Virus genome (UHGV): UHGV-0210052 | Source: a virus | DNA: 38,615 nucleotides | Strand: one strand, 5' to 3' | Shown: positions 4,745-34,961 of the stretch, piece by piece | Numbering within the stretch: position 1 is the stretch's first letter | How the letters are laid out: the number at the start of each line of letters is the position of its first letter | The notes under the pieces: model-generated | Told to the model about the DNA's origin: nothing | The model's database searches: none | What the model saw: only the letters and a program-made list of their open reading frames with translations | Translations under genes and position numbers: made by a program

Positions 4745-4762
4745 CCTTTGAAATTTTATCTC

Positions 4763-5902
4763 ATGGTGTGCATTATGATCTTTGAGGCGCAAAGTCTTTA
4801 TTTATATTTTTTGTCTCTTTTAGCCGTTGTGTTATGTATTACACTATTGACACGATATAACTATTTTTCTCACATCAACTTTGCAAGTAACAGGTATTTC
4901 TTTATAGACGGATTGCGTGGGATAGCTGCGTTCAGCGTTCTTATTAATCACGGCGCTCATACAATTATTACCAATGGAGTTCAGCCCATATTTATAGACT
5001 TCACAAAATACTCCATCACAGGGAATATGGGTAGCTTCGGTGTACAGATTTTCTTTTGCATTACAGGATTTTTGTTCTTTGATAAATTAATAAAAGGAAA
5101 TAATACATTTGACTGGAATAAATTTTATGTTGCTCGGATAAAAAGACTCGTTCCTCTATATATGCTTACTGCGCTTTTGGTGGCAATTTTAGCTATTATA
5201 TTATCCGGCAGTTCAGCAAGGCTTAACTTTGTTGATTTTTCAAGCTTCCTAAATTTTTTTGGGTTTGGATTTTTGGGCACAGAAATCTTCATTGGCTCTT
5301 TTAACGCATCAGGATTAAATGCGGTGATATGGACTCTACCGTATGAATGGAGGTTTTATTTAATTTTCCCTCTATTATCGATTGCCATCGCAAGCAAGAG
5401 ATATGGTATGTTTGCCATTTCCGCAGTAATGTTACTTGCGGCAAGAGACTTTATGACAGAATTTGTTTTGTGGCCATATTTTATAGTTGGCGCCTTAGGT
5501 GCATATATATTCAATAAATCTTATGTTAACATTGATGATAAATATTGGATATTCTCATTCATTTCTTTCATAGCTATTTTTGTTATCTTCTGCTCTTCCG
5601 CAGACAGCTATGGACGAATCAGATTTGCATGCATTTCATTACTATTTATAATGGTACTTATAACTAAACCAAAAATATTTAAAATAAAATCATTAGTTTA
5701 TTTAGGTGAGGCAAGTTATAGTCTTTATTTGCTGCATTTGCCTATCATGGCTATAGTAATGAGAACAATAAATAATTTCTATAACCTATCGAGCATGTCT
5801 ACTGTGAATTACACAATTTTGATAGCCTTTATTGCATCTCTGTGTAGCGTTATTTCCTGTATCTGTTTTAAGAATTTTGAGTGGAGATTCATTAAAAAGT
5901 AA
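4763..5902 (+). CDS. membrane acyltransferase family 3 (OafA/Oac-like), candidate O-antigen acetyltransferase
   Basis: Multi-TM protein with R...FIDGLRGIAAFSVLINHG acyltransferase_3 motif; very AT-rich versus flanks; start uncertain (track TTG 4748, ATG 4763 or 4775). Confidence 0.75.
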   Translation: MVCIMIFEAQSLYLYFLSLLAVVLCITLLTRYNYFSHINFASNRYFFIDGLRGIAAFSVLINHGAHTIITNGVQPIFIDFTKYSITGNMGSFGVQIFFCITGFLFFDKLIKGNNTFDWNKFYVARIKRLVPLYMLTALLVAILAIILSGSSARLNFVDFSSFLNFFGFGFLGTEIFIGSFNASGLNAVIWTLPYEWRFYLIFPLLSIAIASKRYGMFAISAVMLLAARDFMTEFVLWPYFIVGALGAYIFNKSYVNIDDKYWIFSFISFIAIFVIFCSSADSYGRIRFACISLLFIMVLITKPKIFKIKSLVYLGEASYSLYLLHLPIMAIVMRTINNFYNLSSMSTVNYTILIAFIASLCSVISCICFKNFEWRFIKK

Positions 5903-5906
5903 CATT

Positions 5907-5933
5907 GCGGGGCGATGGCCCCGCTTGATTTCC
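5907..5933. terminator. bidirectional terminator between acyltransferase and tailspike
   Basis: GCGGGGC-GATG-GCCCCGC 7 bp GC-rich hairpin with T-rich tracts on both sides. Confidence 0.6.
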
Positions 5934-5934
5934 G

Positions 5935-8133
5935 CTACGCTATATTAAGATTACCATATGTATTGTTTCCAAGACCATACCATGCCCAGTTTGTTCCTGA
6001 TGCAGGAGTACCTGCATTGTGAATCATATCGCCTATATTTATCAGCACTTTCCCAGGGTATGTTGTAGTAGGAGCAGTGTCTATTCCAGCAGACACATCG
6101 GCAAAACGCCAACCACAGGAAACCATATCTGCGTTATCTCTAAATTTCTTAATTGAAAACGTGTATCTGTTTCCTCTATATATCATTCCAGCAAAACTAG
6201 GCCAGTCAATAAGTTGATTTACTGGTGAGTTTAAAGTGTTACTAAACTCATTATTTTCAATAACTGGTTCATCGATACGCACACCCGAAGTTGATACTAG
6301 ATATGTAGAATCAAAGTCGTTGTCAGAAATAATTGGAGCATAACCACCAATTTCACAACCTGTATTGCCATGAACAAAATATGACTTATTCCCTCGGTAT
6401 ATAGATTTTCTCCATGTGGGCATTGTTACTTTTACGGCATCAGTTCTATCAAACTGGTTGTTTTCAATCACAAGTCCATAACAATATGCAGACATCTGAG
6501 TTTCAGCATAATCATTTATGGCATAACCACCGCCTTTAAATGTATTTTTTGTTATTTTAATTCCATTGAATGATGTTGAGTAGTCATTACTACCATTCCA
6601 GATAATTAGAATATGAGATGAAAATGTGCCATCCTCGTTCTGATCCCCAATGCTTATATTGCTATCAATAACAACATTCTGCGCTGCAACACCGTTAGAT
6701 TCACCTCCTATCTCAACGAATATTCCTTGTCCTGTTTTGATGTTATTCGATATAACTGCACCACCAGTCACCCCCCAAGGAGTAATCCTAGACTGAATAC
6801 TTATAGGGCTTATAAAGTGATTTCTTTCTGCAATTAAATATTTTGTTCTTGCTGAGCACGCAAAATCTTCACCAAAAGTATGCCATTTTCTGCCTGTTCT
6901 GTACGTTTGGCAGTCAATCATCTTAGCAATTCCATTAAGATTTTTAGTGAAAAATGTATAATTTGTTACCAAATCAGTCCTTACATTGCTAAGAGTTATA
7001 TCCTCATTTGGTATAGCACCGTCACCATCAGCATCTGCCATTACAAAGATTCTTGCAGCCAATACGTCAATATCATTAATAGATCCACTACTCCCCTCAA
7101 GTGCGAAACCAAACCAATTCTCTTGAGGGGTAAACGTGGTATCTGAAGGTCCAGTTGAAAAATTTGTGCATGACTGGTTTAACTTTATACCATTAAATTT
7201 AAAGTTTTTGCAGTTGAATAAACCAAAGCAAACACGCTCAGCCTCACCATTTCCATCTGTATTTATATTTACATCATTATCTGCGTAAACAAATAAATTA
7301 TTTTTACCATTAATTACAATTGCTGTTTTACGTATAACACCTGCAGAGTCATGATATTGCTGGCTGATTTGGTAATTAAACTTTATCTCACCGGCGCTAA
7401 AACGTATTGCTCTAACACCACCAAATTTTGATATACAAGCGTTAACCGATGCCGTTGAATCATGCACTCCGTTAATATCATGTCCAGCCCAAACTGTATG
7501 TATGCCATCGAGCACACAATTCGAACGGATCCAGCAACCAGAGCCACCACCATCACTCTCACCAGTTCCCGCAAGGAAAGCAGCGAGCTCAGCATACGAA
7601 CCATCCCACGGAACTGTGGGGCTAAATATGGTGATACCGTTGTGCTGAGATTTAGGCATGCTGGCATCCCAGTAAAACTGCCCGCCGCCAAAGTTGGTTC
7701 CTGGTACGTATCCAATTACATTTAATGTGTGATTCCCAGCAGGCTCGCTCATTAAGGTATGGATGTCAGGAACATTCTCCATTCGCTGGCTAAACTGATC
7801 GGGATCATACTTCAGCACATTGGGAAAATAGAACTGCTGCGAACCATACGCATCATATACAGCCATGGAATGGCCTTGCACAGTTACGAACTTGGCAATC
7901 TGTCCGTTATATACCGGATATCCGGCAGCGTTAATGATTATTGGTTGCGAAACAGGAACGTGAGAGCCGTCTTCGTTCTCTATATAAACCTGAATCTGGT
8001 TTTCTGAATTTACGGGGTCAGCGTCAATTTTACCGATATAAATTTTACCATTGGCAACTGCTTTAAAAGAACGCGCCATAGTGAAGAGTTGCGAAGGCAT
8101 GCTTACCACAACATTTGCGGTGATATCTGACAT
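5935..8133 (-). CDS. tailspike protein, P22-like head-binding N-terminus plus distinct receptor-binding domain, 732 aa
   Basis: [37 protein letters not shown] matches P22 gp9 N-terminal domain as recalled; GGAG SD before ATG 8133; track start 8181 rejected. Confidence 0.9.
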
Positions 8134-8254
8134 TTCATTGCTCCAGACGAATGATATGATGCAACCATGATGTGATTGCATACCGAAATGGTACTATTGA
8201 GTATTTATCCAGTAGGTTACGATGCCATTCCACCCAACTGGTGAGGCATCAAGG

Positions 8255-8515
8255 ATGTACAGCAAATACGACGAGGCGCAGTTTCACTTGAGACTTCCGC
8301 ATGAACTCCACGCGAAAATTAAGCAGCGTGCGAAGATGAATAACAGGTCGCTGAACTCAGAGATAATTGCAGCGATTGAAGAATCATTGGCTAAACAAAG
8401 CTCTGCATCTGTTTACATTGACGATGCAGAGCGTATGGCAGAACAACAATCTGATATGGTTAAGAAAATTGTCTTTGATACGCTCAAGGAGCTATATAAA
8501 AAAGACAGCAGCTAA
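8255..8515 (+). CDS. mnt: Mnt-like ribbon-helix-helix repressor, 86 aa
   Basis: FHLRLPHELHAKIKQRAKMNNRSLNSEI and C-terminal VKKIVFDTLKELYKK resemble P22 Mnt as recalled; GAGG SD 8 nt before ATG 8255. Confidence 0.75.
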   Translation: MYSKYDEAQFHLRLPHELHAKIKQRAKMNNRSLNSEIIAAIEESLAKQSSASVYIDDAERMAEQQSDMVKKIVFDTLKELYKKDSS

Positions 8516-20697: not shown

Positions 20698-22113
20698 TCA
20701 ACCTACACCACAAGGAATTGAGTAACTGGAATAGTCGGGTTGCGCAGCCGACTCCGGGCAATGCATACACATCATCAGCGCATCAGCCAGGTTAGGAGAT
20801 GGAATGCCGAGCTTCTGCTTCATTTCGACCTTAGTCATTAGCTCCAGCTTCCCGTTGTTATTGAATTTGCGCTGAATCTGCGTCAGTTCTGCAAACAGCT
20901 TCTCCAGCATCTTCTCGCCTATCGCTTCTTTGTCGAAACTCAGCATGTCGTCGGGGTCTGCATACTCACCGTGGACAACCGACCGATATGTCAGATAAAG
21001 CCTGTCAGCCAGCGCGTAATAGAATTGCGCTCGCTTATTGCGGAACACATCACCAATAGTGCGAACGTTGTCACCCTGTACGACTTCATCAGCCCATGCT
21101 CCGGCCTGATATGGCGCATCTTCATCGAATGGCGATTCGCTGCCCTTGAACATCGTGGCGGTGATTTTCTTGCCGGAGAACGCTTCCGTTGTCTGTCTGC
21201 GTAGCCCGGCACCAACACCATCACCATCCCACAGGTAATGGTCAGCGCCGTCTTCAATCGCCAGCGAAGTAGCCCAGTCAGCACCCTCGTTGATGTCCAT
21301 CAGCAGGCCTTCGGCAATGCGCTTAACAACCGAACCGTGACGCGATGCATAACCTTTAGCATCTGGCCCTGTATCTGATGGGTCATGCGCAGAGACAACA
21401 GCGCCTTTCGCTTTCCATCCGAGTTTCTTGTGCGCATCGGTTGCGGCTTCAAGCCATTCACGTTTGATGATTGCCATATCACTTGCGCTTACTGGCTCAC
21501 CAAGCCAGATGTGACGATACAGTGTCGGATTTCTGCGTTTGCACTCTTCCATCTCCAGACGGAGAACTTCAGGAAAGTGCGGATTGTCGGTGTAGTTCAC
21601 CGTCAGCAGGCAAATATCATCGGGAGGATTTACAACGAATCGCTGATAGGTATCGTCGAGTATGTTCTTCGGGTTAAAGCTCACCCATATTTCAGAGAAC
21701 GGCTTACGGATGGTTGGTATCAGGATATCCCATGATTCCTTCGTTACCGCTTCCGCTTCTTCCACCCAGCAGATATCAATGCCTTCGAGCGATTTAATCT
21801 TCGTCGGGTTGTTTTTGATGCCGTAGAACATGAACTCAGCATTCGTTCCGAGATGACGAATCATGGAACGCTGAATTTCAAACTCAGCCGAATACCCTTC
21901 ACGCTCGATGGTATCTTCAAGCAACCGGATTACCGAATCGCTGATACTGTTTTGCAGTTCACGAGCGCAGAGAATACGCACAGGCTGCCGACGTGCCGCC
22001 TCAACAAGCAGCCTCGCAATTGCCCATGATTTACCGCTACCTCGACCGCCTTTGGCAACTTTGTAGCGATGCGCCTCAATGAACGGTTCAAAGATAGGAT
22101 TAATCGAGGTCAT
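20698..22113 (-). CDS. terminase large subunit, 471 aa
   Basis: Walker A-like VAKGGRGSGKS near N-terminus; nuclease-type C-terminal half; overlaps terS by ATGA. Confidence 0.9.
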   Translation of the reverse strand: MTSINPIFEPFIEAHRYKVAKGGRGSGKSWAIARLLVEAARRQPVRILCARELQNSISDSVIRLLEDTIEREGYSAEFEIQRSMIRHLGTNAEFMFYGIKNNPTKIKSLEGIDICWVEEAEAVTKESWDILIPTIRKPFSEIWVSFNPKNILDDTYQRFVVNPPDDICLLTVNYTDNPHFPEVLRLEMEECKRRNPTLYRHIWLGEPVSASDMAIIKREWLEAATDAHKKLGWKAKGAVVSAHDPSDTGPDAKGYASRHGSVVKRIAEGLLMDINEGADWATSLAIEDGADHYLWDGDGVGAGLRRQTTEAFSGKKITATMFKGSESPFDEDAPYQAGAWADEVVQGDNVRTIGDVFRNKRAQFYYALADRLYLTYRSVVHGEYADPDDMLSFDKEAIGEKMLEKLFAELTQIQRKFNNNGKLELMTKVEMKQKLGIPSPNLADALMMCMHCPESAAQPDYSSYSIPCGVG

Positions 22114-22550
22114 TTTCCGAATAGAGTGCTCATCGGTGATGTTTCAATCTGAATTGCGCCGCCGTCTTTGCCTGTTAGCTCGTGATCAACCTTGTCGCGC
22201 CATTTATCCTTCTGTCGGTTCTTAAGCCAGAAGATGGCGGCGGTTGTATCAGGCGGGTAATACTTCTCAAGCGGAGTTTCGACAATTCTGTTTTCAATAA
22301 CACGAATATCGATGTCTGGAGCCACAAAGCCCATAGCGCGTTGATAAAGACGGTCACTAACTTCTGCATCAGCGACGGCCTTACCCTTTTTTATGGACTC
22401 CGAAAACTTAGGATAATCAAGCTTCCACTTGTTAATAGTTGACTCACTGACTTCAAAGAAATCAGCAAGTTCTGCATCGGTGTAGCCCAGCAAGCACAGT
22501 TTGCGTGCCTGTTCGGCATACGCCTCTTGATACTTTGTTGGGCGCGCCAT
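22110..22550 (-). CDS. terminase small subunit, 146 aa
   Basis: Immediately upstream of and coupled to terL; HTH-like N-terminus. Confidence 0.7.
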   Translation of the reverse strand: MARPTKYQEAYAEQARKLCLLGYTDAELADFFEVSESTINKWKLDYPKFSESIKKGKAVADAEVSDRLYQRAMGFVAPDIDIRVIENRIVETPLEKYYPPDTTAAIFWLKNRQKDKWRDKVDHELTGKDGGAIQIETSPMSTLFGK

Positions 22551-22552
22551 GT

Positions 22553-22795
22553 TTATGCTCCGGTAGTGAACAGGTCTAACGCTTCCTTCGATTTACGCAC
22601 TGCTTCGAATGTGCGGATCGTGATATCTGAATTAGCGCCGCCTGACTGGAAGTGAATTTTGAATAACTCAAGCTTCAGTTCGTCAGTGCCAATGAACTGA
22701 AATGCTTCCTCTGCGGCTGCGTTCTGGTTCATGACCAGTTTGTAAATCTCTAACTGGAATTTCTGTTCTTCAGTCATGGGAATAATCTCTGCCAT
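22553..22795 (-). CDS. hypothetical protein, 80 aa
   Basis: GGAG SD before ATG 22795; directly precedes terS. Confidence 0.45.
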   Translation of the reverse strand: MAEIIPMTEEQKFQLEIYKLVMNQNAAAEEAFQFIGTDELKLELFKIHFQSGGANSDITIRTFEAVRKSKEALDLFTTGA

Positions 22796-23147
22796 TGTTG
22801 GCTCCGTTTATCCGTTAAAAGGGATATCAGTTAAGTTATCCCGTGTAGGGTATAAGCCATTGTCGAGACCACTCATTGAATGGCCTCTGCAATAACCGAT
22901 GTCTTTCCATCAGTCCGCCACCACAAAGAATCTTTTTTGCCATAAGGCTGGAGGTTCATCTTTCAGTGGCTGCCAGTGTTATTTCCCCACTTACTGGCTT
23001 GGGTTGCTTCGTGGTACTGCCGTAACTGGTGGTGCACAGATTTAGTTAAATCTGTTCTCGCCTGAACTATTTTTTACATACCCGGATTGTGGGGATGTAA
23101 ATCACAGTTTCATTATCAAGCCCACCCGTAGATGGGATTTGGAATGG

Positions 23148-23666
23148 TCACTTTGGCAGTCCGGGGATCGATATTTGCGCCTGCTGCTCAAGCCTTTCGA
23201 TTCTTGCTATGAGTTGCGGTTTTTTGATCCTGCCCCAGCGGTTCAGCAAGCGTCCTGACATACTGGCAACATCCTTTTCCTTCATGAACTCCAGCATTAA
23301 CTCGTTGTGCTCTCTTTGGTATGAGTGAGCCATCTCCATCAGCCTGTCACGCATCCAATTAAATGCTTTGATAAACGCCTCTTTGATGGCGGCAGCTTTT
23401 TTGCCGGTAAACGACATGATGATGTACATCGCGCCGTCTTTGGAAATTTCATATTCAACATACTGATTACCCTTGTGTTCATAGGTAACCCGCGAAAAGT
23501 TGCTGGTTAGAAATTCATCCGAACAGTCTAGCTTTTCGATTTTCTGAATGATGTGGTGATGCTGCTTGTCGAAGTAAGCTGCTACCTTGCGGGAGGTTGT
23601 GATCACGCGATCACCAGAAACAACCACCATGTCCCGGAAATCGAGATTAGCCAATTGATGATTCAT
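23148..23666 (-). CDS. rha: Rha family phage regulatory protein, 172 aa
   Basis: VITTSRKVAAYFDKQHHHIIQKIEKL resembles the Rha N-terminal domain; same position as P22 rha; track TTG 23909 extension rejected because it spans a terminator hairpin. Confidence 0.65.
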   Translation of the reverse strand: MNHQLANLDFRDMVVVSGDRVITTSRKVAAYFDKQHHHIIQKIEKLDCSDEFLTSNFSRVTYEHKGNQYVEYEISKDGAMYIIMSFTGKKAAAIKEAFIKAFNWMRDRLMEMAHSYQREHNELMLEFMKEKDVASMSGRLLNRWGRIKKPQLIARIERLEQQAQISIPGLPK

Positions 23667-23805
23667 AGCGTCTTTACCTTTTAGAAAGTGAGCCTGTCTC
23701 ACAGAAAAGCCGCCCGAGAGAGGTCGCCACCTATAACGGCATTTCTCAGGCTCGCTTACTGAAAGGCTCTCGTTAATATGCGCGTGAGATGCGCTGTGAA
23801 ATTCA

Positions 23806-23834
23806 GATATAAAAAGCCCCGCGAATGCGAGGCT
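23806..23834 (-). terminator. terminator-like hairpin downstream of Rz
   Basis: On - strand AGCCUCGC-AUUC-GCGGGGCU (one G-U) followed by UUUUUAUAU. Confidence 0.45.
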
Positions 23835-24008
23835 AAATCCTGGTATTTGTAATGAACTGGCTCTTATCTCAACGCAGCCCCTTACCGCGCGCCAGATGCT
23901 CAACTTCAAGCATCAGCAATGAGATGTTTAATCTGGATTCACTCCAGAAGTGATCACCACCCTGTCTACAGAGCCAGATGTGAAGGATGATGAGTAAAAT
24001 TATCGCTA

Positions 24009-24446
24009 TCATCGAAGGCATTGCGTCCTGATGTATTCCTGCAAGTAGTTAACCTGCGCGGTTATCTTGTCGATTCCACTTCGGAGACGGTAATAATTGA
24101 GTTCAGCATCTGCTGTAAGTCTTGGGCTTTCTCCATCGCCCATGCCGCTGGCTCCGGTCGTTGACTTTGCACAGGTGGCGGCGACTTGCAGGCGCTTACG
24201 CCCAGCAGAAACATCAGCACGGAGACTTTCGATAGTCGCGTTAGCATCAGCAAGCTCCTTTGTGTATCTGGCGTCGAGTTCTGCTACATCACGTTGACGC
24301 TTCTGCATATCAGCGATGATGGATGTGGCTTTATCGCGCTGCTCTTTGTAGGTCATGGCGTTATCACGGTAATGATTAACAGCCCATGACAGGCAGACGA
24401 TGATGCAGATAACCAGAGCGGAGATAATCGCGGTTACTCTGCTCAT
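24009..24446 (-). CDS. Rz: Rz i-spanin, 145 aa
   Basis: N-terminal TM helix then charged coiled coil; follows lysozyme; overlaps R by ATGA. Confidence 0.85.
24062..24253 (-). CDS. Rz1: Rz1 o-spanin lipoprotein embedded in Rz
   Basis: +1 frame inside Rz; signal peptide with lipobox LLGVSAC and Pro-rich mature part. Confidence 0.75.
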
Positions 24447-24919
24447 ACCTCAATCTCTCTGACCGTTCCGCCTGCTTCTTTGAATTTTGCAATCAGGCTG
24501 TCAGCCTTATGCTCGAACTGACCATAACCAGCGCCCGGCAGTGAAGCCCAGATATTACTGCAACGGTCGATAGCCTGACGAATATCACCGCGATCAATCA
24601 TCGGTAAAGCGCCACGCTCTTTAATCTGTTGCAGTGCCACAGCGTCCTGGCTTTTCGGAGAGAAGTCTTTCAGGCCAAGCTGCTTACGATAGGCATCCCA
24701 CCAACGGGAAAGAAGCTGATAGCGCCCGGCTGCTGTTGATTTGAGTTTTGGGTTTAGCGTGACAAGTTTGCGAGGGTGATCTGAGTAATCAGTGAATAGC
24801 TCTCCGCCTACAATGACGTCATAACCATGATTTCTGGTTTTCTGTCGTCCGTTATCAGTTCCCTCTGACCACGCCAGCATATCGAGGAACGCCTTACGTT
24901 GATTATTGATTTCCACCAT
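24443..24919 (-). CDS. R: lambda R-type lytic transglycosylase (endolysin), 158 aa
   Basis: Sequence from [34 protein letters not shown] matches lambda R almost exactly as recalled. Confidence 0.9.
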
Positions 24920-25226
24920 CTTCTACTCCGGCTTTTTTAGCAGCGAAGCGTTTGATAAGCGAACCAATCGAGTCAGTACCGATGTAGCCGATAAACACGC
25001 TCGTTATATAAGCGAGATTGCTACTTAGTCCGGCGAAGTCGAGAAGGTCACGAATGAACCAGGCGATAATGGCGCACATCGTTGCGTCGATTACTGTTTT
25101 TGTAAACGCACCGCCATTATATCTGCCGCGAAGGTACGCCATTGCAAACGCAAGGATTGCCCCGATGCCTTGTTCCTTTGCCGCGAGAATGGCGGCTAAC
25201 AGGTCATGTTTTTCTGGCATCTTCAT
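24903..25226 (-). CDS. S: lambda S-type holin/antiholin, 107 aa
   Basis: [10 protein letters not shown] dual-start motif and three TM segments; matches lambda S as recalled. Confidence 0.9.
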
Positions 25227-25471
25227 GTCTTACCCCCAATAAGGGGATTTGCTCTATTTAATTAGGAATAAGGTCGATTACTGATAGAACAAATCCAGGC
25301 TACTGTGTTTAGTAATCAGATTTGTTCGTGACCGATATGCACGGGCAAAACGGCAGGAGGTTGTTAGCGCGACCTCCTGCCACCCGCTTTCACGAAGATC
25401 ATGTGTAGAAGGCAGCAGCGTAACTATCACTGATGAATTCAGGATAGCCAGTGGCTACGGCTCAGTTTGGG

Positions 25472-25598
25472 TTGTGGCGGCCGGAATCGAACCGGCTTCC
25501 ATCGGTGCGCTGCCGATTGCAGTACGCGCGGCGGTCAGCTACATGACTAGTATTTTCACTGTCGCCTATCTGCTAGCTCGCCATTGAGCTTCACCACA
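25472..25598 (-). other. tRNA-like element (T-arm plus acceptor stem) with oversized central region
   Basis: On - strand GCCGG-TTCGATT-CCGGC T-arm, 7 bp acceptor-like pairing (TGTGGTG/CGCCACA) and GCTC...GAGC D-stem, but about 127 nt total. Confidence 0.3.
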
Positions 25599-25674
25599 AC
25601 GATAAGAGCACTGCGCGGCACCTTTCACCAATTCCGCGAGGTCTGCGGGTTCAATGCTCTTACCTGTTGCACAG

Positions 25675-25737
25675 ATATAAAAAATCCCGAAACCGTTATG
25701 CAGGCTCTAACTATTACCTGCGAACTGTTTCGGGATT
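25675..25737 (-). terminator. tR' (late 6S RNA terminator)
   Basis: On - strand AATCCCGAAAC...GTTTCGGGATTTTTTAT, same as the lambda tR' hairpin as recalled. Confidence 0.7.
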
Positions 25738-25877
25738 GCATTTTGCAGACCTCTCAGCCTGCGATGGTTGGAGTTCCAGACGATACGTCGAAGTGACCAA
25801 CTAGGCGGAATCGGTAGTAAGCGCCGCCTCTTTTTATCTCACTACCACAACGAGCGAATTAACCCATCGTTGGGTCA

Positions 25878-25906
25878 AATTTACCCAACTTTATTCAAAA
25901 AGTCAA
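25878..25906 (-). promoter_or_regulatory. late promoter PR' (with qut region downstream)
   Basis: On - strand TTGACT, 17 bp spacer, TAAATT immediately after Q stop, matching lambda PR' architecture. Confidence 0.65.
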
Positions 25907-25948
25907 TATCATGCCGTTAATATGTTGCCATCCGTGGCAATCATGCTG

Positions 25949-26572
25949 CTAACGTGTGACCGCGTTCAAAATGTTGTCTGCGATTGACTCTTCCTTGTGG
26001 CATTGCACCACCAGAGCGTCATACAGCGGCTTAACAGTTCGTGACCAGGTGGGTTGGGTAAGGTTGGGGATTAGCATCGTTACAGCGCGATATGCGGCGC
26101 TTGCTGGCATCCTAGAATAGCCGACGCCTTTGCATCTTCCGCACTCTTTCTCGACAACTCTCCCCCACTGCTCTGTTTTGGCAATATCAACGGCCCGGCC
26201 AGTACCGTGGCAATCTCTGCATCTTGCGCCCGGTGTCGCGGCACTACGGCAATAATCCGCATAAGCGAATGTTGCGAGCACTTGCAGTACCTTCGCCTTA
26301 GTATTTCCTTCGAGCTTTGCCACACCACGGTATTTCCCCGATACCTTGTGTGCAAATTGCATCAGATAGTTGATAGCCTTTTGTTTGTCGTTCTGGCTGA
26401 GTTCGTGCTTACCACAGAATGCAGCCATTCCGAATCCGGCTTGTGATTGCGCCATCCCCATGGCAGCCATCACATCAGTACCGGAAAGAGAGTCAGAAGC
26501 CGTGGCCCGTGGTGAGTCGCTCATCATCGGGCTTTTTGGCGAATGAAATTTAGCTACGCTTTCGAGTCTCAT
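25949..26572 (-). CDS. Q: late antiterminator Q, lambda type, 207 aa
   Basis: Matches lambda Q as recalled, including CRDCHGTGR...CGRCKGVG zinc motif. Confidence 0.9.
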   Translation of the reverse strand: MRLESVAKFHSPKSPMMSDSPRATASDSLSGTDVMAAMGMAQSQAGFGMAAFCGKHELSQNDKQKAINYLMQFAHKVSGKYRGVAKLEGNTKAKVLQVLATFAYADYCRSAATPGARCRDCHGTGRAVDIAKTEQWGRVVEKECGRCKGVGYSRMPASAAYRAVTMLIPNLTQPTWSRTVKPLYDALVVQCHKEESIADNILNAVTR

Positions 26573-26757
26573 CGTCTCCCCCTCTTGCCCTGTTTGACCA
26601 TCAGGACGCCGTTAACTATTACGTGACGTTCGCCTTTGCTGTCTCGGTTGTACTTGAGCACCGTTCCTCTTGCGCAGGAAAGCATCCTCGCCACTTCGGT
26701 CTGATTGCCTCGTGTCTGGATAAGAAGCTCTGGTATCGTTTGAATTGTGGCGTTCAT
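26569..26757 (-). CDS. ninH: NinH-like protein, 62 aa
   Basis: GNQTEVARMLSCARGTVLKY motif resembles lambda NinH; directly upstream of Q. Confidence 0.7.
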   Translation of the reverse strand: MNATIQTIPELLIQTRGNQTEVARMLSCARGTVLKYNRDSKGERHVIVNGVLMVKQGKRGRR

Positions 26758-27116
26758 ACGTTCTCCAGTTCGGTGATTTTTATTCCAAGCCTTCCGCCTG
26801 GTACTTTCACGCCACGAATTACGCGAATGTCATCGAATTGCTCGTCGTCTTCCGCAAATCCGGCGTGGATAAGGGAGTCGAGTAAACCCTTCAGGATGTT
26901 ATCGAGGTCGCGGCGGCGGGAGTCTGGAACGTCTGCGATGACTTTGATGCGGAGTCGTGATTTGGTGAAAATATCTAACTTGAGTTGGCGGATGATTTTC
27001 TGAACGTCTTTTCTGTATTTCTGGCCTTTATCGCTGATGTAGTATTGGCTTCCCCTTCTTCGCCAGTAGGTATTCACCGACGGCGGGTATGGAAGCACAA
27101 ACTGATATTCGTTCAT
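26754..27116 (-). CDS. rusA: RusA Holliday junction resolvase, 120 aa
   Basis: N-terminal LPYPPSVNTYWRRRG and DxRRRDLDN catalytic motif. Confidence 0.85.
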   Translation of the reverse strand: MNEYQFVLPYPPSVNTYWRRRGSQYYISDKGQKYRKDVQKIIRQLKLDIFTKSRLRIKVIADVPDSRRRDLDNILKGLLDSLIHAGFAEDDEQFDDIRVIRGVKVPGGRLGIKITELENV

Positions 27117-27403
27117 GGCTTAATCTTTCCCTCCTTCAGTAGTATCACCTGCGTCCTGATCACGCCTTCGAGGTGGTAAAGTCTGGCGTCTTTGTTGTCG
27201 AGATTATGGGTGCGTCGGTCGATTTCATCGTGACACGCGCTACAAGCCCATGCGCCGATCAGGTCGTCAGGCTTCATTCCCGTTCCGCAAATTCCAGCCA
27301 TCCGGTAATGTGCCAGAACTGTAGTTTCAGGGTTGCCATTGCATACGCCGTAAATACGTACCTGACATTCTCTTCCGCGCGCTTCTTTGCGTAGGTTAGC
27401 CAT
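27113..27403 (-). CDS. YbcO-like DUF1364 protein, 96 aa
   Basis: RGRECQVRI..VCNGNPETTVLAH..CHDEIDRRTH resembles DLP12 YbcO as recalled. Confidence 0.7.
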   Translation of the reverse strand: MANLRKEARGRECQVRIYGVCNGNPETTVLAHYRMAGICGTGMKPDDLIGAWACSACHDEIDRRTHNLDNKDARLYHLEGVIRTQVILLKEGKIKP

Positions 27404-28125
27404 TAAGCAGCCTCCCCTGTTACTTTCAGCATTCCGTTATCGTGCAGCTTTCTGGTCAGCCACTGTTGACCACGCCCGGTGATTTTTGTGGTGAACGATA
27501 TCTGTATTCCGTGATTTGTGTTGACCGCTGTTTCTTTCACTGTGAAATAGCCGCGATCCATATATTCCTGCATTGGCACATTTCGCCGGGAACCTGAAGC
27601 AATAAGGATTTTGTGATCGCGCATCCACGCAAACAGTTTGTTTGGACCAATTCCAACAACCTTTGCAAAGTTTCCAATCAAAATTCCGCTGGCCTCGCCA
27701 ACGCGATCGGCAAACTCAACTTTAGGTGCGGCAATTGCGAGCTGGTTTTCCAGTTGCATTTTCTGCTCAGCAAGATCAGCAGCAAGGCGCAACGCTTCTG
27801 GTAGCGTTTTGGGGATATTAACCGCAGTTTCCTCAAGCTCTCGCCAACGGTCAACAAGACGAGCGGTGAATTCCGGCGACAACTGAGCGACGACAATAAT
27901 GCTGTCTCGCTTACCTTGTTCGCCCTCAAAAACGTAAGCCTCTACGCCACGAAGTAATCCTAAGTTATTGATTTTTTCGAAAACCACCATTGGGGGATTT
28001 CGGATCACACCTCGAGCCGCCAGTCGTTCAATAGATTGTTTCACCTTGTCATGACGACTTCCCACCAACTCAGCGATTTCAATGCTTGTCATTTTGATGG
28101 AATTGCCATTTATTAACTCATTCAT
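27403..28125 (-). CDS. putative antirepressor (Rha/AntA-like N-terminus, KilAC-like C-terminus), 240 aa
   Basis: N-terminal TSIEIAELVGSRHDKVKQSIERL DNA-binding-like segment; family assignment from motif memory. Confidence 0.6.
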   Translation of the reverse strand: MNELINGNSIKMTSIEIAELVGSRHDKVKQSIERLAARGVIRNPPMVVFEKINNLGLLRGVEAYVFEGEQGKRDSIIVVAQLSPEFTARLVDRWRELEETAVNIPKTLPEALRLAADLAEQKMQLENQLAIAAPKVEFADRVGEASGILIGNFAKVVGIGPNKLFAWMRDHKILIASGSRRNVPMQEYMDRGYFTVKETAVNTNHGIQISFTTKITGRGQQWLTRKLHDNGMLKVTGEAA

Positions 28126-28288
28126 CGTCTTCTTCCTCGTACATTGAGCTGTTCGGATCGCTCATCAGTTCTGCGCAGCAGTGCTCACACATGTGAACTT
28201 CCAGCACATGCAGCTTCTGACCGCAGTTAGCGCACGTTAAAGCTCGCTCGACGCTTTCTTGTTCGTAACTTCGATTTTGGTCAATCAC
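28118..28288 (-). CDS. ninF: NinF-like small Cys-rich protein, 56 aa
   Basis: Manual translation gives (V)[55 protein letters not shown], matching lambda NinF as recalled; GTG start overlaps ninE stop. Confidence 0.55.
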
Positions 28289-28467
28289 CTTGTTTTCCTC
28301 GCACGTTCTCTAAGCCACCGGATATCCCACAGGTGAGCCGTGTAGTTGAAGGTTTTTACGTCAGATTCTTTTGGGATTGGCTTGCGTTTATTTCTGGAGC
28401 GTTTCGTTGGAATGTATTTGCAGTTTTCGCAGATGATGTCGGTGAAACTTCGTCGCTGTCGCCTCAT
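28285..28467 (-). CDS. ninE: NinE-like protein, 60 aa
   Basis: [27 protein letters not shown]... matches lambda NinE as recalled; track start 28557 would overlap the methylase. Confidence 0.7.
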
Positions 28468-28991
28468 GCCGCCCTCCTGACGCCCTGCCCGATCGCCATC
28501 AATGCCGCTTTGGATACGGTAGTAAACATCCGTCGAGGACTGATGAACGGTCGCCAAATCAGCAGCATGGAGCCTTTGCTGTTTCCCTTCTTCTCCAGCC
28601 CTGTCGATGGTTCGATAAAATTAATCCGTCCATCAGTGATAATGCGAACTTCGTCGACACTCTCCAGAGCCTTGCTGAACCATCCGACTGACATATCCTC
28701 TGGCACAAGCATAACTACCGTCTGTCGCTGTTGTATGCACTGCTCAGCGGCTTTTTCCACCCACGGCCTGATATTGCTGTACGGTGGGTTATTCCAGATT
28801 GCACCGTGGCTTATCCACTCAGAATTTAGCGCGTCGTCGGCCTCAGTTAACCAGTGAGCGCACAGAGCATTTTTGTCGCTCGCTGCCGAATCCAGCCAGA
28901 ATCCAAACTCAATATCCAGTGCATCAAAAAGCCAAAGCGGCGTTTGCCAGCAGTCCTTGTCGTGTGCCGGCGTATTTGATTTGATAGTCAT
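28464..28991 (-). CDS. phage Dam-family N6-adenine DNA methyltransferase, 175 aa
   Basis: [10 protein letters not shown] and NPPYS motifs; ATG 28991 has GGAG SD and overlaps ninB stop (ATGA). Confidence 0.7.
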
Positions 28992-29431
28992 GCAGCCCGA
29001 TCTCCCCATCGCGCTTTCCATTCGAGAGCCAGTCGCGCTTCGTCTGACCACTTAACGCCACGCTCTGTCCCGAATGCCTGTATAAGCTCTAATAGCTCAG
29101 CAAATTCGCTTACACGCATCCTGCTGGTTGACTGGCCTATTACCACAAAGCCATTCCCGGCAAGGTTAGGAACAACATCCTGCTGCTTTAATGCTGCGGT
29201 AAACACACACTTCCAGCTTTCTGCATCCAGCCAGCGACCATGCCATTCAACCTGACGAGAGACGTCACCTAAGCAGGCCCATAGCTTCCTGTTTTGGTCT
29301 AAGCTGCGGTTGCGTTCCTGAATGGTTACTACGATTGGTTTGGTTGGGTCTGGAAGAATTTGCTGGATAGCTTGAATGGCGTTCTGCTGATGGATGGGGC
29401 TTCTTAGTTCAAACGTTAGTTTCCTCACCAT
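28988..29431 (-). CDS. ninB: NinB recombination protein, 147 aa
   Basis: Near-identical to lambda NinB as recalled (IVVTIQERNRSLDQNRKLWACLGDVSRQVEWHGRWLDAESWKC). Confidence 0.85.
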   Translation of the reverse strand: MVRKLTFELRSPIHQQNAIQAIQQILPDPTKPIVVTIQERNRSLDQNRKLWACLGDVSRQVEWHGRWLDAESWKCVFTAALKQQDVVPNLAGNGFVVIGQSTSRMRVSEFAELLELIQAFGTERGVKWSDEARLALEWKARWGDRAA

Positions 29432-34373: not shown

Positions 34374-34742
34374 ATGGTTGGAACCGCTATAGCAAGCTTT
34401 TTTGGGATGTTGGCAATCTCGACAATTTACGGCTTAGCGCATGCTTTTATTGCGAAATCTCTATCAGAAAAAATAAGCCAGGCTTGGGCGCATAGATCAG
34501 CTCGTTTCATGATTCTTGTGATCATAGCAATACAAGGGATATCTGCATTTATCCTCTATGGATCAAGCTTATACCTATTGTATCAAGGCGCGACATTTAC
34601 GCCTTACACCAGTGATTACGGAACTCTATACGATGGTAGTGAAGACATCACTGTGGCTTGGATCGTCTTTGGTTTATCTATGGCCGTGTCTGTTGTAGCA
34701 GACATCATTAAGGTAATTCTCGTCTTAACCTTCGCTGACTAA
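34374..34742 (+). CDS. small multi-TM membrane protein co-transcribed with cI, 122 aa
   Basis: ATG 34374 with AAGGGG SD; starts 18 nt after cI stop; three predicted TM helices; no motif recognised. Confidence 0.5.
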   Translation: MVGTAIASFFGMLAISTIYGLAHAFIAKSLSEKISQAWAHRSARFMILVIIAIQGISAFILYGSSLYLLYQGATFTPYTSDYGTLYDGSEDITVAWIVFGLSMAVSVVADIIKVILVLTFAD

Positions 34743-34828
34743 CCCATAATCCCGACAGCAATAGCTATCGGGATCCACTTCACATATCCCGCATAAAAAT
34801 CACTGAACAAGCAGACAGCGAAAAAATA

Positions 34829-34913
34829 AATATCCTTTGTATTCATTTGTTTATCATTATTTCATCAAAAATAAATACCTTGGGTATTTACACAATAAAA
34901 TACCTACAGTATT
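34829..34913. promoter_or_regulatory. OL operator array
   Basis: AATATCCTTTGTATT 34829-34843, AATACCTTGGGTATT 34874-34888, AATACCTACAGTATT 34899-34913; same consensus as OR. Confidence 0.55.
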
Positions 34914-34915
34914 CT
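34887..34915 (+). promoter_or_regulatory. PL promoter
   Basis: TTTACA, 17 bp spacer, TATTCT; overlaps OL sites; about 195 nt upstream of N. Confidence 0.5.
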
Positions 34916-34961
34916 TTAGCCATCAGCAGGACGCTGGAAGCCAAACGGAACAGATTGGCAG

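Follow-up and report, generated by a model that had tools for sequence, protein, structure and literature searches.

Intragenic dyads in the rha and roi genes of an HK620/P22-like phage genome suggest IHF-assisted self-regulation

The viral genome UHGV-0210052, a stretch of 38,615 nucleotides that was analyzed whole and is called the window below, carries two genes on its minus strand, rha and roi, each with an inverted repeat (dyad) inside its coding sequence and, a little further 3', a match to the consensus of integration host factor (IHF). An initial annotation, made from the sequence alone, had described both as antirepressor-type genes. The Rha-family gene lies between Rz and the terminase genes, where it had been placed, and only its start had to be moved, from 23909 to 23666; the second gene lies between ninF and the YbcO gene, again as described, and its product has a KilAC domain (Table 1). 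The two are almost certainly the accessory genes rha and roi, which are already known from lambdoid phages. They have been annotated before in near-identical form, and the set of rha, roi, and an orphan mnt has been published for phage Gally, in a paper that names five regulators (mnt, c2, c1, roi, and rha). The part worth following appears to be the intragenic dyad with its apparent recognition code, for which the evidence is comparative.

The window is an HK620/P22-like podophage. The phages closest to it are Kapi1, E212, CUS-3, and HK620 (HK620-like Lederbergvirus), with 95 to 97% identity over 50 to 63% of the query. The order of genes on the minus strand between about 18 and 32 kb is helicase, nin region, Q, holin, lysozyme, Rz, rha, DUF2560, terminase, and portal. 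For the 5.9-kb segment that contains rha and roi, the closest relative is Gally (96.5% over 90%). Because this segment is present with at least 80% coverage in 60 of 5426 complete Escherichia coli genomes, rha and roi are conserved genes and not chance open reading frames (ORFs); the rha cassette is found in 182 of the same 5426 genomes. Homologs of Roi and Rha occur together in one Stx2a phage record, and the combination is not unusual. The roi gene is also annotated in HK97, HK620, CUS-3, and Stx phages.

Pfam assigns to Rha a Phage_pRha domain (E = 2e-23; 83.1 bits, with a cutoff of 29.9) and an ORF11CD3 domain (E = 2e-23). The protein also matches NCBIfam TIGR02681 with 76 bits (cutoff, 45.95), its best PHROG is 518 ("Rha-like"), and it is 100% identical to Rha of Gally. 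In Roi, the ANT/KilAC domain is matched with E = 8e-33, and the N-terminal Phage_pRha match, at 27.8 bits, lies slightly under the cutoff of 29.9. These were among the domain searches suggested with the initial annotation: pRha was found in Rha and, below the cutoff, in Roi, and KilAC was found in Roi, with no KilAC domain in Rha by Pfam. All listed Roi homologs have a precomputed PF09669 or PF03374 match, most of them both, and P22 Rha aligns to the N domain of Roi with an E value of 1.5e-4. By profile and alignment, Rha and Roi share a homologous N-terminal domain, a predicted pRha winged helix, but they differ in the C-terminal module, which is ORF11CD3 for Rha and KilAC for Roi. No relatives of Rha or Roi were found in a sequence search of the PDB. 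An AlphaFold model of Roi from a shallow alignment, in which all sequences were more than 91% identical, was unusable, with a mean predicted local distance difference test (pLDDT) score of 39.5. The model from an alignment of diverse homologs has a mean pLDDT of 76.9 and reaches 85 to 91 over most of the N domain. It shows residues 25 to 38 as one helix, followed by a beta-hairpin, and since these residues form one helix in the model, residues 27, 30, and 34 are placed in the putative recognition helix. Roi alleles fall into discrete types and vary almost only in residues 21 to 62.

Table 1. Positions of the two genes, their candidate regulatory sites, and other features in the window
Feature	Position	Strand	Description
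roi	27403..28125	-	240 amino acids (aa); pRha-like winged helix-turn-helix (HTH), aa 12-99; linker helix; KilAC/ANT, aa 126-228
Roi putative recognition-helix codons (aa 25-38)	28012..28053	-	K27, Q30, and R34 define the specificity type of the allele
roi dyad (nt 124-148), 25 bp	27978..28002	-	CGAAATCCCCCA-A-TGGTGGTTTTCG; candidate Roi self-operator
IHF-consensus site in roi (nt 153)	27961..27973	-	AATCAATAACTTA; starts 17 nt 3' of the dyad center
rha	23148..23666	-	172 aa; pRha winged HTH, aa 23-106; ORF11CD3, aa 115-168
rha dyad (nt 158-181), imperfect	23486..23509	-	TAACCAGCAA-CTTT-TCGCGGGTTA; candidate Rha self-operator
IHF-consensus-like site in rha	23456..23468	-	AATCAGTATGTTG, matches WATCARNNNNTTR; starts at +117 from helix 2
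Terminator-like hairpin	23815..23834	-	AGCCTCGCATTCGCGGGGCT then TTTTATAT; within the 343-bp gap between Rz and rha
Mnt-like repressor gene, orphan	8222..8515	+	Arc and Repressor_Mnt domains; 49% identical to P22 Mnt
Tailspike gene	5935..8181	-	Divergent from mnt
ninF	28118..28288	-	Flanks roi
YbcO gene	27113..27403	-	Flanks roi
Rz	24009..24446	-	Neighbor of rha
DUF2560/orf80 homolog	22553..22795	-	Neighbor of rha
Small terminase	22110..22550	-	Neighbor of rha
Large terminase	20698..22113	-	Neighbor of rha

The dyad in roi is about 25 bp long, with a layout of 12 + 1 + 12, and its center lies at +87 from the start of HTH helix 2. The sequence of the palindrome differs between Roi types, yet it stays symmetric. 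About 240 further loci were added to the comparison, with divergent relatives from Acinetobacter, Klebsiella, and phiP27-like phages among them. A palindrome of at least 5/6 at the fixed offset, or with a shift of one codon, is present in 89% of 55 Roi protein types, with a mean of 0.8% at other offsets. Across 22 sequence types, the two arms are complementary at 84.8% of positions versus 54% in shuffles, all 12 pairs vary on both sides, and the covariation score is 0.71 versus 0.18; when the register is slid, the score drops to 0.06 to 0.17, i.e., to background. Few synonymous recodings of the encoded peptides are as symmetric as the Roi dyads (P of about 0.005 to 0.07 for most types).

The bases of the half-site follow the residues of the putative recognition helix. 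Residue 27 goes with base 3 in 21 of 21 rows (Asn with T, Ser with A, Lys with C, and Asp with G), residue 30 goes with base 4 (Arg or Gln with C, Ile or Val with G, and Thr with T), and residue 34 goes with base 5 (Arg with C and Thr, Ser, or Met with A). The permutation P value is at most 2e-4 for each of the three pairings. They also combine freely: helices with Asn, Arg, and Thr at the three positions come with TCA, those with Asn, Arg, and Arg with TCC, those with Ser, Arg, and Thr with ACA, and those with Ser, Arg, and Arg with ACC. This is hard to explain by simple linkage, since the codons of the helix are interleaved in distance with the bases of the dyad.

In rha, no palindrome in the 300 nt that follow HTH helix 2 scores better than the dyad, whose center, at +88, is at the family position. 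Among Rha-type genes from enterobacteria and Pseudomonas, the best palindrome in the corresponding 300 nt is centered at +87 to +96 in 33 of 40 types; as the Roi center is likewise at +87 from helix 2, the position of the dyad is common to both subfamilies. The arms of the Rha dyads are complementary at 92.5% of positions, compared with 69% in shuffles (ten Rha types), and the weakly paired pairs, 5 and 6, are the same in the Rha and Roi sets. The Rha residue equivalent to Roi residue 27 tracks the equivalent base (Asn with T and Asp with G; P < 3e-4). Neither dyad has a second copy in the window.

The IHF-consensus site in roi is one of only two exact matches to WATCAANNNNTTR in the window, and in a first survey, the 13-nt consensus was kept in 84 of 84 roi alleles. 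Over the wider set of types, the consensus is found at +104 in 24 of 55 Roi types and 17 of 41 Rha types and at +117 in two Rha types, including that of the window. Within the segments compared, it occurs at no position other than these two, and about 45% of the sequence types have one. Roi of phage HK022 reportedly binds inside its own gene beside an IHF site, in a complex stabilized by IHF. According to the titles of papers from 1995 (Henthorn and Friedman) and 1996 (Clerget and Boccard) and to text citing them, Rha and Roi are linked to IHF mutants, in which their products inhibit phage growth, and a later paper cites the 1996 work as showing that Roi is a DNA-binding protein.

The pattern of a dyad followed by an IHF site suggests self-binding, IHF-assisted autoregulation. 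In the account that we propose, the pRha domain would be a sequence-specific DNA binder, and because it would bind the dyad, each gene would carry its own operator. The cognate site would lie in the protein's own coding sequence, in the codons just after the recognition helix, a role to which the covariation points. Matches to the IHF consensus suggest that IHF may bind on the 3' side of the dyad in both genes, at a distance of about 17 nt in roi and about 29 nt in this rha. A dimer together with IHF inside the transcribed gene would then limit synthesis of the protein, probably by blocking the elongating RNA polymerase, and as a side effect, it may dampen the genes downstream, namely, Q after roi and the packaging genes after rha. 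Where IHF is missing, this control would break down, and the protein made in excess would presumably do harm through its C-terminal module. Loss of IHF would thus lead to overproduction and toxicity, which would fit the IHF-mutant phenotype of Rha and Roi.

As a whole, this picture, in which the genes are rha and roi and their dyads serve as self-operators, is reasonably likely; taken by itself, the use of the dyads as operators for autoregulation is on balance probable. The extension to the whole family has about an even chance. According to it, pRha genes of both the Rha and the Roi type may be self-targeting specificity cassettes, in which a dyad of about 25 bp just after the gene's own recognition-helix codons is inherited together with the protein, helix residues 27, 30, and 34 specify half-site bases 3, 4, and 5, and, in enterobacteria, an IHF site at a fixed spacing completes the autoregulatory complex. 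In a limited literature search, no description of such a family-wide pattern of intragenic dyads was found.

Several points weigh against this interpretation. Covariation is all that the operator assignment stands on, and the roadblock step is purely inferred. The dyad is no more than about 60 nt away from the helix codons, and their correlation could partly be due to co-inheritance. The three residue-base pairs recombine freely, which speaks against this, but the independent lineages are few. For the window's own Roi type, the P value from synonymous recoding is 0.27, which on its own is indistinguishable from the null expectation; the rha dyad is weak, with 8 of 10 arm pairs complementary; and the IHF match in rha fits only the looser consensus. 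Divergent rha alleles lack this looser match, which was accepted after the two fixed positions in the family had emerged. Finally, a stable mRNA hairpin would explain the compensatory changes in the arms equally well.

This last point is the core of an alternative in which the dyads are mRNA hairpins, acting in stability, processing, or translation pausing, and the correlation between residues and bases is a by-product of linkage. RNA stems are classically recognized by compensatory changes in the two arms, stems of 11 bp are possible from some Rha-type dyads, and there are a few G-T pairs, which would be acceptable as G-U in RNA. However, the innermost pair of the Roi dyad flanks a single base and is nevertheless complementary in 22 of 22 types, with three swaps from A-T to G-C; as a one-base loop cannot form in RNA, this pair would not be under selection for RNA structure. 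An RNA stem also gives no reason for residues 27, 30, and 34 to track bases 3, 4, and 5. The reported binding of HK022 Roi to DNA within its own gene is a further argument for a DNA site. The pairings look chemically sensible for a protein on DNA, with Asn going with A on the other strand, Lys and Arg with G, and Asp with C. We therefore regard the hairpin explanation as unlikely.

A further possibility would add to the self-operator account instead of replacing it. The KilAC domain of Roi could damp RecA and the SOS response in the manner of Listeria AriS, with the N domain regulating phage genes, which would make Roi a dual-function tuner of all SOS-dependent prophages in the cell. AriS-like proteins combine a constant C-terminal KilAC domain with an AntA/AntB, Bro-N, or pRha N domain, and Roi has the pRha plus KilAC architecture; moreover, the KilAC domain alone blocks SOS induction, which holds for two further homologs as well. 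The evidence on AriS, however, comes from Firmicutes and not from the enterobacterial Roi, and its effect needed overexpression. Stx2a phage sequence types in which roi is disrupted by IS629 have been reported, so roi may be dispensable for the phage. Such a second function of Roi is improbable on present evidence.

The third alternative takes the label literally: Rha, Roi, or both would be true antirepressors that inactivate a CI/C2-type repressor, either that of their own prophage or that of a co-resident one. In the label "antirepressor-type," the family assignments held up (Rha, and a KilAC domain related to Ant of P1 and P7), and the functional ideas attached to it were left without support in the sequence. 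Residues 60 to 234 of Roi are 52% identical to residues 154 to 343 of P7/P1 Ant1, and the Ant1 record annotates the formation of a complex with C1. Both families are named "antirepressor" in databases, and beside roi in Stx phages lies an Ant gene that has been described as enhancing lytic induction. The repressor of the window, however, is a LexA-like protein of the P22 C2 type, unlike the P1/P7 C1 that Ant1 is annotated to antagonize. The KilAC domain of Listeria AriS acts against the SOS response and not against a repressor, and the authors call the exact function of the domains unclear. As had been noted initially, the canonical immI ant is absent: tblastn searches of the window with P22 Ant, Arc, and SieA gave no hits, and the P22_AR_N and P22_AR_C domains that make up P22 Ant are absent from both Rha and Roi by Pfam.

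The context of the two genes likewise speaks against a role as the trigger of induction. No LexA box was found in the window, either as CTGT-N8-ACAG or as a relaxed match, unlike in Gifsy-type antirepressors, which are controlled by LexA. Control of either gene by the orphan Mnt-like repressor had been suggested, but 16-mers from the intergenic region between mnt and the tailspike gene do not recur upstream of rha or roi with up to three mismatches, although the Mnt operator of this phage is not known and this is not proof. The roi start overlaps the ninF stop by 8 nt, and the roi stop overlaps the ybcO start by 1 nt; because these overlaps leave no room for a private promoter, roi appears to be part of the early-right operon, coupled in translation to its neighbors. 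The rha gene follows the lysis genes in the late-gene region, and no sigma-70-like promoter was found ahead of it. If the operons are like those of P22, neither protein is made until the repressor is gone, so rha and roi would be silent under the repressor and could not start induction of their own prophage. Induction cross-talk with co-resident prophages had also been proposed, and nothing in the sequence or its context points to action in trans. In Gally, roi and rha were unresponsive in strain LF82 under a condition that raised mnt 40-fold. True antirepressor activity is thus quite improbable; Rha and Roi appear to be regulators that bind specific DNA sequences, not proven antirepressors, and the label reflects the habit of databases, not a demonstrated function.

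The start of rha at ATG 23666 follows from the family profiles, which begin at residue 81 or 82 of the longer ORF, and from the identical 172-aa protein annotated in Gally. The 253-aa version reaching to 23909 is a mechanical ORF with a TTG start and was rejected; the terminator-like hairpin inside the extension is a further sign against it. The 5' leader of rha (23660 to 23870, minus strand) contains this hairpin and then a long stem, in which AAAGG before the start codon pairs with an upstream GCCUUU, and its folding energy has a z score of -2.6. No RNA families were found in an Rfam search of the window. A 50-aa ORF with a hydrophobic N terminus (23869 to 24021, minus strand) overlaps the end of Rz; it has no Pfam match and is listed as hypothetical in Gally and E. 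coli genomes. Near the 5' end of rha, at 23592 to 23628, there is a second inverted repeat with 9-nt arms 19 nt apart and two GATC sequences in the spacer, and P22 rha has a comparable inverted repeat at the equal relative position. A Dam-type methylase is encoded in the window at 28464 to 29051. Weak matches to P22 Rha were also seen at 632 to 775 and at 34715 to 34927, the second outside any clean ORF.

The slot between Rz and DUF2560 (22796 to 24008 in the window, 2095 to 2846 in locus L002, and 1138 to 1866 in locus L003) is a swap site for proteins of the Bro network. Among the viral contigs that carry roi, the gene after Rz is this rha, an rha allele with 42 to 48% identity, a KilA-N gene, or another gene. 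By phage, the slot holds pRha plus ORF11CD3 in the window and P22, KilA-N plus ORF11CD3 in HK620, and KilA-N plus P63C in HK022.

Around roi, macrophage-specific antisense transcripts running from Q up to roi (window positions 25949 to 28125) are described in the LF82/Gally paper, and their end point is close to where the Roi dyad and the IHF site are proposed. Two related viral contigs, L012 (at about 6379) and L015 (at about 5443), have a perfect palindrome of the Roi type and of the window's specificity class (CCCCCAATGGGGG) within an early-region gene, guessed to be a replication gene, 3.7 to 4.7 kb upstream of roi. It could be a second Roi target. The window does not have this early-region site, and near-copies in other phages include an apparent terminator-type hairpin.

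The orphan Mnt-like gene that had been noted is present, divergent from the tailspike gene with neither arc nor ant between them, and it is context rather than part of an rha/roi system. At 8159 to 8181, a 23-bp near-palindrome, ATGCAACCATGATGTGATTGCAT, overlaps the start codon of the tailspike gene. If this is the Mnt operator, as it may be, tailspike expression would be all that Mnt controls. A region of low G+C content (0.34 to 0.36 at 5001 to 7000, versus about 0.50 elsewhere) takes in the distal portion of this gene and an ORF at 4748 to 5902, as expected of a swapped host-range module.

As first stated, the finding of two antirepressor-type genes matters little, the genes being standard, annotated lambdoid accessory genes. 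If the dyads are the genes' own operators, however, a large and routinely mislabeled family, found in thousands of phage and prophage sequences, would gain a concrete and testable mode of action. The phenotype that connects Rha and Roi with IHF, an observation about 30 years old, would gain a mechanism. There would be a tunable roadblock just upstream of Q in the case of roi and of the packaging genes in the case of rha, and the genes would offer a clean natural case in which a DNA-binding helix co-evolves with a site no more than about 60 bp away.

Among known systems, P22 Ant shares with Rha and Roi only the loose antirepressor label and membership in the wider network of domain-swapping Bro-type proteins; it is built from P22_AR_N and P22_AR_C and is controlled by Mnt, Arc, and sar RNA, whereas the window has no arc and no ant. 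C.Kpn2I is reportedly a small regulator whose roadblock to elongation affects transcription of its own gene, as in the mechanism proposed here; it is part of a restriction-modification system and is not evidently linked to Rha or Roi, and the likeness is one of mechanism only. The Ant1 and Ant2 proteins of P1 and P7 have the KilAC/ANT domain in common with Roi, but Roi has nothing that corresponds to residues 1 to 153 of Ant1, and Ant1 gave no match to pRha. Their gene is in a c4-icd-ant operon under the control of C1 with an antisense RNA, whereas roi is in the nin region. Listeria AriS, like Roi, has a regulatory N domain and a C-terminal KilAC domain, and pRha plus KilAC is among its variants, although the N domain of AriS itself is AntA/AntB, unlike that of Roi.

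The closest likenesses are within the lambdoid phages, where an Rha is known from phi80 as well as from P22. P22 Rha (orf201) is 45% identical to Rha of the window and has in common with it the pRha and ORF11CD3 domains and the slot between gene 15 (Rz) and orf80; the N domain is the most divergent part, and the C-terminal ORF11CD3 is far better conserved. P22 rha has an intragenic dyad at the same relative position, directly followed by the strict IHF consensus AATCAATAACTTA, as in roi, whereas the rha of the window has a looser match 13 nt further on. Roi of the window is 89% identical to HK022 Roi over the full 240 aa, and the value for HK620 Roi is 90%. The gene order ninF-roi-ybcO-rusA-ninH-Q is the same in HK022, HK620, and the window, and HK022 Roi has the same pRha-like plus KilAC architecture and the same intragenic IHF consensus at nt 153. 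In residues 21 to 62, which comprise the putative recognition helix and the wing, HK022 Roi is of another allele type, with NVKVSIDRL in place of the KVKQSIERL of the window, and the half-site in HK022 roi is CCTGCA, compared with CCCCCA in the roi of the window.

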